Below are positions 1-11,952 of a stretch of 11,952 nucleotides of DNA, one piece after another. The stretch is taken from assembly GCA_041742355.1 (NCBI GenBank), contig JBGSIV010000091.1:1-11952 (forward strand), given 5' to 3'. Position 1 is the stretch's first letter. Each line of letters begins with the position of its first letter. This DNA is from Candidatus Zixiibacteriota bacterium (GTDB lineage Bacteria > Zixibacteria > MSB-5A5 > GN15 > FEB-12). Made by a program: the position numbers.

Positions 1-3000
1 GCTCCAGCGCGACCAGCGCAGGAGCCCGAGCCCCTCGGGCGTCCCGCGCAGGAAGATCAAGGCGTCCTTCAAATCGGTCGTGCGACCGTCATACTCGACC
101 GCGAGGTAGAGCCGTGCTTTCGGATCGGCCAGCAGCCGGATCTCGCTCACAGCCGCGCCGGTCTTCGGCAGAAGCGGGAGCGGAGCGCTCTGGTCGCCGT
201 TGGAAACGAATACGTCGGCTACTTTCGCCCGCACCAAGCGTTCCGGACGTTGCGGCGTGAAGAAGAACAGGCCACCGTTGTCGCGCAGCTCCCGGTAAAA
301 AAACCGCGTCGTGGAATCAATATCGACCACGGGATCGGACAATTCGCATTTCATCACGGTGAACGCCGGCACCGGCCAGCGCCGCACTTCCGGGCACACC
401 GAGCGGATGAGCGACTGTGTCGCCACCTCCCAGATCCGGTCGACACGGGAGTCGATGCGCGCGAGTTGGCCGGAGTACATGTGCAGGAGGATCCGCAGGA
501 TCGGATCCATCCGTTCCGGCGATTCGGAGATCTCCGGGTTCCACGCCCGCAGTTCGCGGAACATGTCGCGGAAGATCTGCTCTCGGCTCTGTGAATCGGT
601 CGTCGTCATCTATGTCCTGTTGGGTGCCCCCAGCTCAGGCCAGCCGGTAGACCGCCTCAAATTTGCGTTCTTCGCCGTTGTCTTTGTATGTCCCGGTGAC
701 CCTGACCACCATCCCCAGCCGCGCCGCCAGCTCGGCCTCGGAGGGCGAGAACGAGATCGACACGTTGTACAGCCGCTTCTCGAAAGCATCGAGCGCGTTG
801 CGCAGGGCCGAGCGGATATCGGCTTTGTTGGAAGAGAAAATGTCGCCGTACTCGCGTTCCCAGATCTCGCAGCCGAACTCCGGCAGGAAAGGCATCCGCC
901 CGAGCCGGGTCGAGAGAATGAGGCCGACCGAGTGCGTGATCGACTGCAGCAAATCCCCCCGGTTGAGATAGCCGTTGCGCAGCACGAGAGGCAGGGAGAG
1001 GTATTCCATACGCGGTTAGTTGAGATTAATGACGGCGCCTTTCACCGTCACGGGGCCGCTCGCTTTAAGATCGAGGGTAGCGTTTGCTTTGACCTCGGCC
1101 GAGGCGCTCGCTTCCTGCTTGAGGTTCGCGCCCGCCTTGATTTCCGTGTCAGTGCCCGACTTCAAAATCAGCTTCTGCCCGGCGTCGACCGTGATATTCT
1201 GTCCCTTGAGGGTGATATCCCCTTCGGTCGAAATCGTGATGGCCTTCTTCGCGGCATCCAGCACGATCTCGCACTTCTTGTCCTTGGTGATGATCTCGAT
1301 CTTCTCGGCGCCGCCTTCGTCGGTGAGCACTATCCGGTGCCCCGACTTGGTCGTCAGCCCCTTCTTCATGTTGTCCTTCGCGACCAGGTCCGCGTCCGGC
1401 ATCGCGTTCTTGTTGTAGAGCGCGGCAATCGCGATCGGGGCGCTGGGATCACCGTGCTCGAATCCGACCAACACTTCATCGTTGATCTCGGGCAGCATAT
1501 AGAAGCCGTGCTTGTCGCCGGCGTGTCCGGTAGTGAAACGCATCCAGTCCGATTCGAGCTGGGTCGGCCAATTGAACTTTACTTTTATCCGCCCCAGCTT
1601 CTCCGGGTCGTCGACATCCGTGACCACCGCGGTCTGCAACTCCGGTTGCGGCGCGGGGAGTCGCCGGGGCCGCGGGTAGGCCGTCGCCAGCGGCGTGCCG
1701 CTGAAGATGTTGTAGTATTTCCCCCCGCTGATGAAGTGCTCGACATGTTCGACGAAGTAGACGTCCGCGACGCCGTCGAGTCCTTCCACTTTCAGCCTCG
1801 TTCCCGGCCGGATTGCCGGGAGAGACGCCTGCCCGACACACCGCACCATCTGGGCGAGGTTATGCCCCCGCTCCCACTTCATGTAGTTGTCCAACAGCGC
1901 CTGCTCGTGCGCGGTCATCCCCACATCGGATATCCCCATTCCCTCGTAGATCTCCTTCGCGGCCTTTTCTGATTTCGACGGCAGGTCGCCGAGCGACCGG
2001 TTCATGCGCACCGCCTGCTCATCGGAGACATACAGCTTCCCCATCGCCGGGTTGTAGCTGGCTGAGCTGTAGCGGAAGGGGCCGGTGCCGAGATTGAGCG
2101 AAAATGCCCCGAGCATCTCGTTCCACTTGACCGTCTCGGACGATTTCGAATTGTCCGCCGCGACACAGGTGATACTAGAGCCGTCGTAGACCGTGTACAG
2201 CCCGTGCAGCGCGGCGAGCCGCACGACAAAGTCAAAATCCGTTTCGTGGTACTGGATGATGTACGGGAACTTGCTCTGGGTCGCCTCGATCGAACCCGAT
2301 GTGACCTTGTATTGCCCGATCACCTGGCTGATTGCGTCCGACGCTTTCATCTGCTCGAACACCCGGTTCTTCGGCGCACCGTCGAGGAGAACCGTCGGAC
2401 TCTTCGCCACGATCACGGCCTCGCCGAACTGGTCGACCGAGCTCTCGAAGCGGACCTCTGTGACCGTCCCGGTAAACGACAGCAGCTTGTCGTTGGCGAC
2501 CTGCTGGTTGGCCGAGGATGTCTTGAGCGTCAGCGGCTTGCCCAGGATCCCCGAGAGTTCGTCGACCGAGATCGTCTCGCCGCTCTGATCGCCGACCCGG
2601 TGCAGGCCGATCGTAAGCTGGTGATGGTCGTTGATCGGCTGGACGAGGTGGAAGTACTGGATCTCCCGGGCGAAGGACTTACCGCTGACGGTAATCTCCG
2701 CGCCGAGATTGATCCCTATCTTCATGGCCGACTCTACGTCCCTGGCTCCTTTTGAGCCCGCTCTGCCGGCAGCACCGTTGATATCGACTGTCATAGCTCC
2801 TGCTCGCCTTCCACCCGGTCATAGGGCGCCGGGCGGGGTTGTGGCCCGCCCGGCTGCATGCCATTACCTACTCTTCCCACCGATTGTCGATTTCGGCGTC
2901 GCCGATCGACAGCTTGTGGCAGGAAATCTCGAAATACTCGAATACCTGGTCGTCCGGTTTGTCCTTGATGTGCGGAACGGACTCCACGTACTTCGTGATG

Positions 3001-9000: not shown

Positions 9001-11952
9001 ACGCTTTCCCCACCTTGACCTCCCGGTCAACCAGCGCGTAATTCTTCTTCTTGTCCGGCCCGGTGACCCGCGAACCCCGATCCTTGATGACCGGCGTCAT
9101 GTAGTCGGAGGCATCGGCGTTCACGTATTTGACTTCGGCCGTCCCGGGGAGGCCGATCTGATTCTTGAGCCCCCGGATGAACCGGACGATCGCCTGGCAT
9201 TCTCCACCATACTTCTCGAATTCGGCCAACGGCCACGCCCCGCCCACCGCCCCCTTCATGTACGCCGAAAAACCGGCCTGCGTCATGCGATTCTTAAGAT
9301 CCTTGTGCTTATCGAGGTACTTCTGCTGCTTGCGGGACAGCATGTCAAACGACAGGATATACGCCGGGAATCGTTTGAACCACTCCTCGATGATATCGAG
9401 TACTTCCACCGCATCCCCGGTGGCGCAATACCATCTGGTCGCGGTCGTCATGCGGCGGGTGGTGACGCCGTCCTCCGGGCGGCCGTCCTCGATAGGCGCG
9501 GCGCACGTGGTATAGAGCACGTGCGGGCCGGAGGTCCCGGCCACGTACTCCCCGCCTTCGATCGCCACCTTCCACGAAATCGACGGAATCGTTACTTCGC
9601 CCATCAGATTCGGCAGAGGGCCGTCGGCTGTGACCTCCACTTCCTTCGTCCCCGGCGACAGGGTAATATCCCCCCGAAAACTGCTCCACGCATCTTTCCC
9701 GACACCGATCAGCCTGCCTTCCACCTGCTTGCTCGATCGGGTCCGCACGTTTACCCGTGCTTTCAACTGCAGCGTCGATGCCGTATCGACCGACACCGGG
9801 CGCGCCCGGTTGGGCCGCCATTCCGGCGCCGGTATCAGCGGACCGGTGTTCGCCCAATCCGCATCGTTCTCTTTCATCAGGCCGTGATCGGAGAGGAACT
9901 CGAGGCTGAGCAGAATCACATCGGTCGTTCGCCCGAAAAACTTCGCCAGTCTGCCGCTGGCCGCTTTCCCCGTGTTGGCCCGCTTGCCCGGAATCCACAC
10001 GTGGTCACCGACATAAATGACATTCGGATCCGGGCGTAATTCCCGGAAATCCTCATTCTTCTCATGGTTGTAGATGTCATCCCAGCGCTTCAGACCGAAC
10101 CGTTTGGCCAGCCGGCTGAGCGTATCGCCCCGCTTCAGGACATACCAGAATCCGTCGCCGTTCGCCACTTACTCCTCCCCCTCGAACGGATCGATCACTT
10201 CGAATTCGGGGAATTCCACGCGCACCGCCCCCGGCGGGATATCCGTCTCGCGGGCGCGTCCCTCCGCATCGAGCGTCCCGTCGCGCGTGCTGCCGTCCGC
10301 CAGGTACAGCGTGTACTTCGCATCGGCGACAGGCTGCCCGTTCTCGTCAGCCAGCACGATATCTAACCAGTCCTTGAACACCAGCAGCTTCGATTCCTGC
10401 TTCTTCCCGAAAACCGCTCCGCCGTAGTTCACGGTGAAAAAGTACTCCGGCGGATTATAGCTGCCGCCGTACTCTTCCTTCTCCTCTTTCGTGGGAATCT
10501 CGTCGGTATCCTCATGGTACTCATACTCCCACTGCAGTTCAATCTTGCTGTCCTTCACCACGGCCGGCAGTTCCACGATCTTGTCATGTACCCCGCCGGC
10601 ATCGTACTCCCGGATCGTCACGAGCACCTCTTCCCCCGGCCCGATCCCCTTTTCGACCTCGGCCGACAGGGTCAGCACATCCCCGCGCCGCGCTTCGCTG
10701 GCGCTCCACTTGAGGTTCTTGATCACGACTGGCGGCGCCACCGGAATGCGGTCCGATTCTCCCTTGAGGCCGTTTTTCGACAACTTCACCTCGAAGTACA
10801 ATTCGTCCTCGGGATCGAGATCTTCCGGGATCGCGATTTCATCGCGGAACCGATCGCACCGCATCACCCCCTTGACCGTGCCGATCTTCTTGCCGCCGTC
10901 GATTCGCACCGTCACCTCGACCGGGGCGCCGAAGCCGACGAACGAGGTTCCCACCTCGAAATCCGCCTTCTGACCGCAAATGGCGCTCGGCGACACCCAG
11001 ACCGCATACAGCAGGGCGGACTCGACCTTCGCCGTTTCCTGTTTATCGGTGTTCTTGTTGAACGAGAGTTCCGGCATCAGTCTTCCTCGGGTGACTCGTA
11101 GGTCCCCGGCACCAGTTCCTCGATCAGGTCGCGGACATGATCGCCGAGCATCTGGTACGAACGCTTGCTGAACTGGACGGTGAACATGAATCCGACTCCC
11201 CCCGCCAGCACGAACACGTACATGTGGAGCACCGTCACGCCTTCCCCCGGCGCCCACTTGTAGACGAACTCCCAGGCCGGATTGCCGTCCTCGACCGTGA
11301 TCTCCTCATGCTTGAGCACCTCGATCCCGTCCATCGCACCGACAATCGGCACCGTGCGGTCGCGCACGAACTCCTCGAGATCCTCGGTGCGCGGGTGGCG
11401 GTCAAGCGTCATCATGAGCAGGTGGGTGCGGTCATCGACCTCCGGGCCGGAGAACGTGAACACCGTCTGGTCCTCCCATCCGCGCGGGAGGTCGAGCGTA
11501 TATGGTTTCTTCTTGCTGCCCACGGTCATTTCTCCAGCGTCTTGAGGAAAACCCGCACCTGCTCGATTTCATCATCCGTGTACCGGCGCGTATTCGAAGC
11601 GGCAAAGGCAAACTCGTCCGGATACCACGCCACGACCAGGGTCGCCGCGGCATCCGCCACCCGCGCGTAAACCGCCCGGTTCACGCTGCCGATCATGTAC
11701 GCCTCCCCGGCGTCATCGAGCGCGGGAAGCAGGTACTTCGCCAGCGTAGAATCGTTGATATACCTCAGATCCTGAATCGCCCCGTAGCGCACCGACGATT
11801 CCGGCGTAGCCAGCGGGCGGGTGAACGCGCTTTTGTCGCCCTCTCCCAGCCGGGCCAACGCCAGTTGCAGGGAGCGGATCACCTCCGGATCAGCCTCGGT
11901 CTTGAGCCGATTGCGCATCGGATCCACGGCGGCGCGATCGTCGAACCGCCCC

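Follow-up and report, generated by a model that had tools for sequence, protein, structure and literature searches.

How is a type VI secretion system (T6SS) held in the envelope if its locus encodes no membrane complex recognised at family cut-offs? This question is raised by the window analysed here, the entire contig C91 (JBGSIV010000091.1, positions 1-11,952) of an uncultured Zixibacteria genome, in which the T6SS genes, located with an ORF list and a Pfam scan, are all encoded on the minus strand, as are all features given below on either contig. The order on C91 is a DcrB-like gene, three poorly conserved genes, a two-gene ClpV, TssB, TssC, Hcp, VgrG, TssE and the N-terminal part of TssF, while contig C5 carries the remainder: the C-terminal part of TssF, PASTA-TssG and TssK, followed by g85, g84 and g83. 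The earlier note had proposed a T6SS locus, which the core families detected with Pfam and NCBIfam bear out, and had regarded C91 and C5 as halves of it, in agreement with the single run in the same order found in all four close relatives fetched (G101, G072, G148 and G188). Since this run is uninterrupted and the two TssF halves adjoin in each of the four, with a gap of 21 nt in G101, C91 joins C5. We consider it roughly two in three likely that both contigs together encode one complete contractile T6SS of uncultured Zixibacteria, combining an iii-like tail with a minimal TssL/TssM-like anchor.

Tail and baseplate would be built from TssB, TssC, Hcp, VgrG, TssE, TssF, PASTA-TssG and TssK. The small sheath subunit TssB (4804..5244) matched T6SS_VipA over cut-off (E 3.3e-9) and TIGR03358 (E 1e-8). 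The large subunit TssC (3359..4795) aligned to positions 20-419 of the 430 positions of PF17541 (E 1.2e-70) and gave no match to any NCBIfam TssC model of the T6SS-i type. The tube protein Hcp (TssD, 2868..3272), 83-88% identical in close relatives, matched PF17642 (E 1.6e-20). Judged by sequence, sheath and tube belong to families built on Bacteroidota T6SS-iii. The 592 aa VgrG spike (1016..2794) is free of an added effector domain and matched Phage_base_V (E 4.6e-24), Phage_GPD (E 1.7e-18) and, over cut-off, TIGR01646; it is followed by the gp25-like baseplate wedge TssE (635..1009; GPW_gp25 E 3.9e-13, TIGR03357 E 6.5e-9). The first 203 residues of TssF (1..609) matched PF05947 (T6SS_TssF) below cut-off (E 0.0035) and continue at C5 6383-7414. 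TssG (C5 5445-6386) carries a PASTA domain according to Pfam, as previously claimed, and TssK (C5 3960-5390) belongs to the T6SS core families.

A ClpB-like ClpV, encoded by two genes with coupled translation, would recycle the sheath. ClpV-N (6376..7827) comprises the Clp_N domain, the first AAA+ domain with its lid (AAA, AAA_lid_9) plus the beginning of the middle domain, and corresponds to positions 2-460 of 853 in the ClpB model and 4-476 in the TssH model. ClpV-C (5282..6379) contains the rest of the middle domain, the second AAA+ domain (AAA_2, E 7e-62) and the ClpB_D2-small domain, corresponding to ClpB positions 504-852, so the cut near model positions 460-504 lies inside the middle (coiled-coil) domain. 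The stop and start codons share an ATGA at 6376-6379, preceded by GGAGG at a distance of 8 nt, which supports the coupling postulated before; every relative examined likewise has ClpV-N immediately before ClpV-C and TssB. The split holds here and is the majority state but is not universal, with 120 split and 14 fused cases in 134 assessable genomes. As the genome encodes a separate full-length ClpB (over cut-off), the split ClpV represents an extra, T6SS-linked paralogue.

The conserved upstream edge of the locus is formed by the 150 aa DcrB-like protein (11077..11529; PF08786 over cut-off, E 1.7e-8), which is possibly an adaptor or chaperone for cargo. Homologues occupy the same place in G101, G072, G148 and G188, and the G072 copy is also a DcrB protein. 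Its stop is overlapped by the start of a 302 aa beta-rich protein (10169..11077; CarboxypepD_reg E 0.0034, below cut-off), for which tblastn detected homologues of 50-58% identity after DcrB in G101, G072 and G188 and weaker matches within PAAR-domain proteins of G072 and G252. Sequence comparison suggests that it is kin of the prealbumin/CarboxypepD_reg-like C-terminal part of the relatives' PAAR proteins. The next protein, of 479 aa (8729..10168), has a LysM motif at its N terminus only (E 2e-4), a single LysM match in a PDB sequence search (E 0.17) and no tblastn match in 10 relatives; we regard it as candidate cargo. A candidate immunity protein or cargo partner is encoded at 7977..8756: its translation yields up to 259 aa with a lipoprotein-like N terminus (...LLWAAC), no Pfam family and no match in the 10 relatives. 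The poorly conserved genes separating ClpV from the DcrB-like gene probably provide cargo and immunity. An open frame at 11526..11951, the 3' part of a gene truncated where the contig ends, matched HEAT_2 below cut-off (E 4.5e-5) and had no tblastn match in 10 relatives; its membership of the T6SS is not supported.

For g83, g84 and g85, no T6SS membrane family in Pfam or NCBIfam reached its curated cut-off. In the own genome, DotU, SciN, IcmF-related_N, TssN, TssO and TssR all remained below cut-off, TssN over cut-off was likewise absent from five of five well-assembled relatives, and no conserved outer-membrane component was found. The 307 aa g85 (C5 3014-3937) consists of an all-helical cytoplasmic domain and one C-terminal membrane helix. 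Fold searches with its AF2 model (pLDDT 89.9) placed three TssL/DotU structures at ranks 12, 20 and 33 of 48,161 chains, aligned over 82-89% of their own length to model residues 24/26-179/218. In the proteobacterial loci fetched, tssL follows tssK in 7/7 and tssM follows tssL in 4/7. g85 shares the position and tail-anchored topology of TssL, and the model adds weak hints of its fold. The 174 aa g83 (C5 245-769) is a small beta-rich protein with an AxA-type cleavable signal peptide instead of the signal anchor formerly assigned to it. HMM searches revealed no similarity to TssJ and it has no lipobox; it is a secreted periplasmic protein rather than a lipoprotein.

The order ClpVN-ClpVC-TssB-TssC-Hcp-VgrG-TssE-TssF-TssG-TssK-g85-g84-g83 is intact in 4/4 close relatives and largely intact in the distant genomes G244, G008 and G004, where g84 is 27-30% identical. 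Among 29 further genomes, g83 was found near g84 in all and g85 in 28, the missing one at a truncated contig. Outside the genus, the DNA past g83 shows no conservation, which makes g83 the last gene of the conserved cluster. Across the phylum, g84 occurs in 145 of 285 genomes, own included, and TssC (PF17541) also in 145, closely reproducing the former counts (142/284 for TssC). Both are present in 143 genomes and neither in 138; only four, all 58-77% complete, have just one, so that the two co-occur in 143/147 genomes having either. This co-occurrence and the gene order bear out the earlier view of a conserved membrane P-loop protein coupled to the T6SS. In family f17 (G252, G253), g84 lies about 0.6 Mb from TssC and adjoins PD40 propeller proteins and a PAAR protein, with no g85 beside it; we counted this unlinked state against the anchor reading.

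The 730 aa g84 (C5 797-2989) has a basic amphipathic N terminus (11 K/R within the first 30 residues), a GTPase domain (DO-GTPase2, E 5e-8), one membrane helix, a helical periplasmic region of about 250 residues, a C-terminal beta-sandwich and a conserved tail. Both lists of its fold searches were filled by GTPase-domain matches. When residues 30-345 were compared by hhalign with the cytoplasmic part of five proteobacterial TssM proteins, a match of 94.2% probability (E 1.1e-7, 262 columns) was obtained that pairs GHTNAGKT with GPPGAGKT, DYPG with DTAG, PVALVVTKADILPGF with PVYVLFTKADLIAGF, and QIFFSS with GVYFTS, and reaches as far as the membrane helix. This domain-cut alignment is colinear over Walker A, DxxG, TKAD-x-L-x-GF and the next strand, and whole-protein comparisons gave 87.8% (E 3.3e-6) and 82.9% (E 9e-6). 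In a search of 24,949 own-genome ORFs plus the five TssM with an HMM of the g84 GTPase domain, the TssM proteins ranked 2-6, above every GTPase of the genome, at individually weak E-values of 0.007-1.7. Reciprocally, the TssM profile, built on just these five sequences, had g84 as its top own-genome ORF (E 0.51). In the own genome the best genome-wide six-frame match to Pfam IcmF-related_N fell inside g84, and in 5/5 well-assembled relatives inside its homologue, always below cut-off; this weak match was present in 18 of 32 g84 family members. By these profile comparisons, g84's cytoplasmic GTPase domain is remotely homologous to the nucleotide-binding (NTPase) domain of TssM. The former statement that the locus has no known membrane complex therefore stands at family cut-offs (TssJ/L/M/N/O/R) but not for this P-loop domain.

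An unlikely alternative, weakened by these alignments, would make g85, g84 and g83 a third membrane complex that was recruited independently and is analogous rather than homologous to TssJLM, with a GTPase co-opted from the DO-GTPase conflict-system family and a TssM likeness due to shared ancestry of a broad clade or to convergence. The best Pfam family of g84 is indeed DO-GTPase2 (PF19993; 33 bits against a cut-off of 27) rather than IcmF-related_N, with DO-GTPase2 matches in 31/32 members, and one of the five TssM also touches it weakly (E 0.27); the TssM likeness could therefore partly reflect the wider GTPase clade. The periplasmic two-thirds of g84 had an hhalign probability below 1% and no HMM match to TssM; for this part, as for g85 and g83, sequence comparison detected no relative among TssM, TssL or TssJ, and the periplasmic parts of the module matched nothing known. 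Recruitment of a non-homologous anchor by a T6SS has a precedent in Bongiovanni et al. 2024 (PMC10781749). However, the TssM match spans the whole domain up to the membrane helix and takes in the stretch, specific to TssM, that follows the G4 motif; every other GTPase of the genome ranks below the TssM proteins, and both the gene succession (tssK, tail-anchored protein, GTPase-membrane protein) and the domain order are those of TssL/TssM.

Less probable still is a mainly regulatory g84, acting as a GTP switch by which firing is positioned or licensed, much as in small-GTPase polarity modules, with the envelope-spanning parts encoded by other, unlinked genes. The G1, G3 and G4 motifs, invariant in 150 sequences, suggest a working nucleotide switch, and in G252 and G253 the gene stands apart from the T6SS core beside TolB-like periplasmic propellers and the PAAR protein. 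Yet g84 has a membrane helix, its periplasmic part of 370 residues is conserved from end to end in close lineages, it is nearly always a single copy adjoining tssK and g85, and it shares the cluster with no other conserved membrane gene; moreover, Ma et al. 2012 (PMC3346141) report that TssM itself joins NTPase and structural roles. It is highly improbable that the locus encodes an extracellular contractile injection system or a tailocin: the weak Phage_sheath_1C match of the TssC C terminus (E 9e-4) and the lack of a canonical membrane complex over cut-off are outweighed by a two-subunit TssB/TssC sheath, the ClpV recycling ATPase, TssK, TssF, TssG, a TssD-family Hcp, three conserved membrane or secreted proteins and the absence of tape-measure, tail-fibre or lysis genes from the conserved run.

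The envelope anchor would then most likely be the three-gene module after tssK. Established by the analysis are the gene content and order, their conservation and phyletic coupling, the pattern of membrane segments, the GTPase fold and the remote homology of that domain to TssM. We infer a physical complex with docking, a channel role and GTP control: the TssK baseplate would dock on an inner-membrane base of g85 and g84, the latter, as a 'mini-TssM', would reach towards the outer membrane with its periplasmic part, possibly aided by g83, and GTP binding or hydrolysis by g84 may gate assembly or firing. None of the papers searched describes an iii-like tail paired with a likely anchor of this kind, a very distant, stripped-down relative of TssM.

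Among known systems, the tail resembles T6SS-iii of Bacteroidota, reportedly attributed to Russell et al. in 2014, in TssC (PF17541, E 1e-70) and Hcp (PF17642, E 2e-20), a sub-type assignment made from Pfam families. Also shared are a ClpB-like ClpV, the lack of TssJ, TssL or TssM over cut-off and the lack of a TssA family match among the locus proteins (Pfam, NCBIfam). According to Bongiovanni et al. 2024 (PMC10781749), T6SS-iii combines TssB-K, ClpV and VgrG with a TssNQOPR membrane complex; in this complex TssN has five membrane helices and a cytoplasmic domain, TssQ, TssO and TssP are anchored at the N terminus, and TssR is a lipoprotein. In contrast, a genome-wide search covering TssN, TssO and TssR (TssP and TssQ lay outside it) found none of them in the own genome, and the Zixibacteria anchor genes encode a tail-anchored protein, a GTPase-membrane-periplasmic protein and a secreted protein; the split ClpV and the PASTA domain of TssG are further differences. 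The two ClpV halves jointly span the ClpB and TssH models (Hsp100 class 1 AAA+ unfoldases) end to end and, as for ClpV/TssH, sit directly before tssB, but they are two polypeptides in 120/134 assessable genomes and fit the ClpB model with a better score than the T6SS-i TssH model.

DO-GTPase2 proteins are said to be GTPases of prokaryotic conflict systems, an attribution to Kaur, Burroughs, Iyer and Aravind in 2020. This family scores best for the g84 GTPase domain, whereas g84 differs in being membrane-spanning and single-GTPase, with a large periplasmic part and a tie to T6SS genes, and matches no PADLOC defence model. Compared with TssL/DotU (PF09850), the tail-anchored partner of TssM, g85 likewise directly follows tssK and has a cytoplasmic domain made wholly of helices and just one membrane helix, at the C terminus. 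TssM/IcmF, the inner-membrane core of T6SS-i TssJLM (PF14331, PF06761, PF21070, PF06744), is matched by g84 over cut-off in none of its Pfam families. At 730 residues against about 1,115-1,190, g84 is some 450 shorter, bears a basic amphipathic N terminus instead of two N-terminal membrane helices, and has a periplasmic part about half as long with no detectable sequence similarity. Nevertheless, both proteins share a P-loop NTPase domain that is homologous by profile comparison, the same succession of NTPase domain, membrane helix, helical periplasmic region and C-terminal beta-sandwich, and a gene position two places after tssK.

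The genome (4.37 Mb in 310 contigs, 93.8% complete) carries the locus on two contigs, of which C91 (1-11952, 11,952 bases) forms the window. The real genes of the window lie on the minus strand only, and the long plus-strand frames are antisense frames usual at 60% G+C. Transcription starts with a cut gene with a weak Pfam HEAT match, followed by genes for a DcrB-like protein (Pfam), a beta-rich protein of 302 aa, a 479-aa protein (8729-10168) with a LysM motif at its N terminus only, and a protein of 259 aa whose N terminus resembles that of a lipoprotein. Then come ClpV, encoded by two genes (5282-7827; identified by Pfam and NCBIfam), TssB (T6SS_VipA) and TssC (PF17541, E 1.2e-70), Hcp (PF17642, E 1.6e-20) and VgrG (Phage_GPD and Phage_base_V), and TssE (GPW_gp25), the matches from TssB to TssE all exceeding the family cut-off. 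The first 203 residues of TssF close the window and its last 343 residues open the locus on contig C5; its family match is weak (T6SS_TssF, E 0.0035), yet a single gene between those of TssE and TssG is kept in relatives. C5 continues with a PASTA-TssG fusion (T6SS_TssG above cut-off), TssK (PF05936, 24.2 bits vs a cut-off of 23.4; TIGR03353, E 3e-13) and, in this order, three conserved membrane or secreted proteins, g85 (307 aa), g84 (730 aa) and g83 (174 aa), none of which reaches a family cut-off. Given this gene content, a reading as an extracellular contractile injection system (eCIS) was rejected.

When 19 proteins of the locus were compared with the genomes of ten relatives by tblastn, the whole run was found unbroken in four of them (G101, G072, G148 and G188), where the two pieces of TssF abut as a single gene. 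This bears out the earlier note, which had joined C91 and C5 into one locus. The more distant genomes G244, G008 and G004 retained the order ClpV, TssB, TssC, Hcp, VgrG, (TssE), TssF, TssG, TssK, g85, g84, with g84 identities of 27-30%. In the surroundings of g84 in 29 further genomes, g83 followed in all 29 and g85 preceded in 28, the exception being a truncated contig. A search past g83 for a further conserved gene that might serve as an outer-membrane part found no DNA conservation beyond the genus, and we therefore regard g83 as the last conserved gene; in the closed genome G072 it is followed by genes for an unknown protein and for a sodium:sulfate symporter. The locus is real, spread across the phylum and complete once the two contigs are joined.

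Within the phylum, g84 was present in 145 of 285 genomes, our own included, and TssC (PF17541) likewise in 145. Both occurred together in 143 genomes and both were missing from 138; G171 and G181 had g84 alone, G059 and G260 TssC alone, and these four discordant genomes are 58-77% complete. The two tallies of presence and absence also matched within each family and each genus. These counts describe co-occurrence and do not test it, kin being non-independent. In family f17 (G252, G253 and G255) both genes were present about 0.6 Mb apart. The f17 homologue of g84 in G252 (contig C1, 1505000-1524999, positions 1545-9295 of this stretch) lies away from the T6SS core and its TssC. Its neighbours are a PAAR protein that has a prealbumin-like domain and, on the opposite strand, a g83-like gene, and three consecutive PD40 (TolB-like) beta-propeller proteins occupy the place of g85 and TssK. 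A separate observation concerns G004 (contig C3, about 713300-715400; 13325-14417 of fetched stretch L043), whose TssC match is split over several pieces and frames, with a Pfam match to positions 211-356 only and a 256-aa open frame; this may reflect decay of the T6SS or frameshifts in the assembly. Submitter labels placing the system outside Zixibacteria (Ignavibacteriales and Krumholzibacteriota, which many relatives carry, and Deferrimicrobium) proved unusable for its range: the 'Candidatus Deferrimicrobium sp.' record (L108, G287) is G063, with the same contig and the same TssC coordinates, and G063 is filed in the window's own family.

The earlier note had also stated that the locus has no known membrane complex. 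At the level of family cut-offs this stood. IcmF-related_N, DotU, SciN/TssJ (PF12790), TssN (PF17555), TssO (PF17561) and TssR (PF17643) had no match above cut-off in our 93.8% complete genome, the genome-wide search for TssNQOPR covering TssN, TssO and TssR. TssN and IcmF-related_N likewise remained below cut-off in all of five well-assembled relatives. The statement needs revision below the cut-off: in our genome and these five relatives (6/6), the best six-frame match to IcmF-related_N (PF14331) genome-wide fell inside g84.

This weak match recurred in 18 of 32 members of the g84 family, over the stretch PVALVVTKADILPGF, with E 0.0019 for the best member. For comparison, five TssM and seven TssL sequences were aligned from seven proteobacterial plasmid T6SS loci. 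Profile-profile alignment (hhalign) of the g84 family with TssM over whole proteins gave probabilities of 87.8% (E 3.3e-6) and 82.9% (E 9e-6) when the family was represented by 32 and by 150 sequences, respectively, and trimming both profiles to the cytoplasmic domain gave 94.2% (E 1.1e-7) over 262 columns. The alignment places Walker A on Walker A, DYPG on DTAG, TKADILPGF on TKADLIAGF and the QIFFSS strand on GVYFTS, and extends to the membrane helix in both proteins. As a control for the objection that any GTPase would do, an HMM of the g84 domain was run over 24,949 ORFs of our own genome together with the five TssM, which took ranks 2 to 6 (E 0.007-1.7), ahead of every GTPase of the genome. 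In the reverse direction, g84 was the top own ORF for the TssM HMM (E 0.51).

Counting against homology with TssM, the best Pfam family of g84 is DO-GTPase2 (PF19993; E 5e-8, 31 of 32 members). The g84 family profile matched no PDB sequence better than E 0.2, and the best 120 of 230 homologues of the GTPase region all belonged to the same family, annotated as 'hypothetical' or 'GTPase domain-containing', with no bridge to TssM. Because all values agree, though each alone is weak, we consider the g84 GTPase domain probably homologous, as judged by sequence, to that of TssM. The GTPase motifs are invariant in 150 family sequences, and g84 presumably uses GTP.

The overall design of g84 was compared with TssM in an AF2 model (mean pLDDT 84.5, 150-sequence alignment). 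Its N terminus is disordered, basic (11 of its first 30 residues are K/R) and amphipathic rather than hydrophobic, and the sole hydrophobic segment, residues 336-361, lies within one long helix. It is followed by a helical region (387-618), a beta-sandwich (621-718) and a conserved tail. TssM has three membrane helices, an N-terminal hairpin and one after the NTPase domain, whereas g84 has only one and is about 450 residues shorter. The order of its parts is that of TssM after the first two membrane helices, namely NTPase domain, membrane helix, helical periplasmic domains and C-terminal beta domain, according to the Pfam layout of the five TssM. The periplasmic part of g84 had no match to that of TssM (IcmF-related, IcmF_helical, IcmF_C) by hhalign or by HMMs in either direction, Foldseek and VIA-align searches with the full model returned only GTPases among their matches, and the best ESM Atlas score for the periplasmic part (0.82) was uninformative. 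A complex predicted from g84 residues 366-730 and g83 residues 30-174 reached a median score of 0.31 against a mark of 0.32, with controls at 0.00, which speaks neither for nor against such a complex. Assembly in the periplasm is presumed.

The family of g85 is small: among 1.84 billion proteins it forms 49 clusters at 50% identity, and none of 50 members matched a Pfam family. The g85 model is all-helical (pLDDT 89.9) with a single C-terminal membrane segment at residues 258-286 of 307. This topology is that of TssL, and the gene is in the tssL position: tssL follows tssK in 7/7 proteobacterial loci, and g85 adjoins tssK in our genome and in relatives. Neither hhalign nor HMMs gave a signal between g85 and TssL in either direction, Foldseek found nothing in the PDB at E <= 0.001 and the ESM Atlas held no usable match, while VIA-align of the model over 48,161 chains listed three TssL/DotU structures. 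The third protein, g83, consists of a signal peptide with an AxA-like end and a beta-rich body of 145 residues that includes a short, conserved hydrophobic stretch. A lipobox is not consistently present, a cysteine occurring at the cleavage region in some members only, and HMMs in either direction gave no signal between g83 and TssJ; the role of g83 is putative. The family HMM also picked up a second, distant copy of g83 (E 2e-4, 21 bits), which lies on contig C157 of our genome (frame +0, ORF start near residue offset 7562) and thereby outside the T6SS locus.

On the upstream side, G072 carries a PAAR protein with prealbumin-like domains, a DcrB-like gene, a homologue of the 302-aa protein and an unrelated 819-aa protein. 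The two window genes that separate ClpV from the 302-aa gene had no tblastn match in any of ten relatives, and would fit variable cargo with its immunity protein. A PDB sequence search found no match for the DcrB-like protein and only a LysM match for the 479-aa protein (E 0.17), namely a phage 'tail tube initiator' LysM protein, too weak to interpret. PADLOC assigned no defence family to g83-g85 or to the three unknown genes of the window. The only PAAR-motif gene above cut-off in our genome lies on another small contig, C292 (2095-2337). Since the PAAR protein of G072 sits upstream of the DcrB-like gene, C292 may be the piece that is missing upstream of the window.

The two ClpV genes adjoin tssB and together span the ClpB and TssH models, ClpV-N (6376-7827) covering ClpB positions 2-460 and ClpV-C (5282-6379) positions 504-852. 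We take the cut to lie within the coiled-coil middle domain. The stop codon of ClpV-N and the start codon of ClpV-C overlap (ATGA), with GGAGG ahead. Since a full ClpB above cut-off and a ClpC-like gene are present besides, the split ClpV is an extra paralogue, and by sequence the pair would fill the slot of ClpV, the AAA+ ATPase that recycles the sheath. In bit scores, the halves favoured the ClpB model over the T6SS-i TssH model (427 vs 391 and 463 vs 312), and among plasmid proteins they were 42-56% identical to ClpB/ClpK and 33-41% to annotated TssH.

Junctions in seven relatives showed an overlap or 1-nt offset (G101, G072, G148, G188), a gap of 30-40 nt (G004, G008) or a single fused frame (G244). 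Phylum-wide, the state of ClpV was read from open-frame length around 142 ClpV-C orthologues (112 at >=71% identity, G120, 20 of family f5 and 9 of families f16 and f17): 120 were split (frames of 357-471 aa), 14 fused (810-890 aa) and 8 not assessable because of contig ends. All nine f16/f17 genes were fused. Both states were found across the phylum, which implies that both persist. Five fused genes (G048, G133, G134, G138, G182) were scattered, by frame length, among split close relatives, G047 and G049 of the same genus being split; they are apparently re-fused or never-split genes. Their scatter suggests that switching is easy, and where stop and start overlap a one-base change could suffice.

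Altogether, we tentatively propose, with a probability of about 0.4, an undescribed T6SS subtype that combines a iii-type tail with a minimal anchor sharing an ancestor with TssL and TssM. Searches of openly available full texts turned up no such system, type VI secretion and Zixibacteria meeting there in incidental mentions. If the proposal holds, a TssL/TssM-type anchor would be older than the split between the Proteobacteria and Bacteroidota types, and Bacteroidota would later have swapped in TssNQOPR. g84 would then be the smallest natural TssM, with a single membrane helix, some 370 residues in the periplasm and intact GTPase motifs, and a minimal version for structural work. ClpV would be a naturally split, two-chain Hsp100 unfoldase, its split and fused forms (120 vs 14 genomes) offering a natural experiment on Hsp100 architecture. 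The locus further predicts contact-dependent antagonism in the ecology of uncultured Zixibacteria.

Two unrelated kinds of T6SS anchor are known, the TssJLM of Proteobacteria and the TssNQOPR of Bacteroidota. Bongiovanni et al. (2024, PMC10781749) leave the origin of each open and set out three evolutionary scenarios, among which the proposed subtype, if real, would choose. They present the Bacteroidota T6SS-iii as devoid of TssJLM, with TssN contributing five membrane helices and a cytoplasmic domain, TssQ, TssO and TssP carrying N-terminal anchors, and TssR being a lipoprotein. By Pfam, the Zixibacteria locus shares the sheath and tube families PF17541 and PF17642 with T6SS-iii. Whereas T6SS-iii has TssN, TssO and TssR, the Zixibacteria locus is without them; a pair resembling TssL and TssM stands in their place, the architectures of g83-g85 being different. 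With its Bacteroidota-like tail and slimmed TssM relative, the system represents a concrete intermediate that can be tested. It was seen in 143 of the 285 species genomes of Zixibacteria and is best filed as a iii-like tail joined to a minimal anchor of TssL/TssM-like type, with a ClpV that is mostly split.
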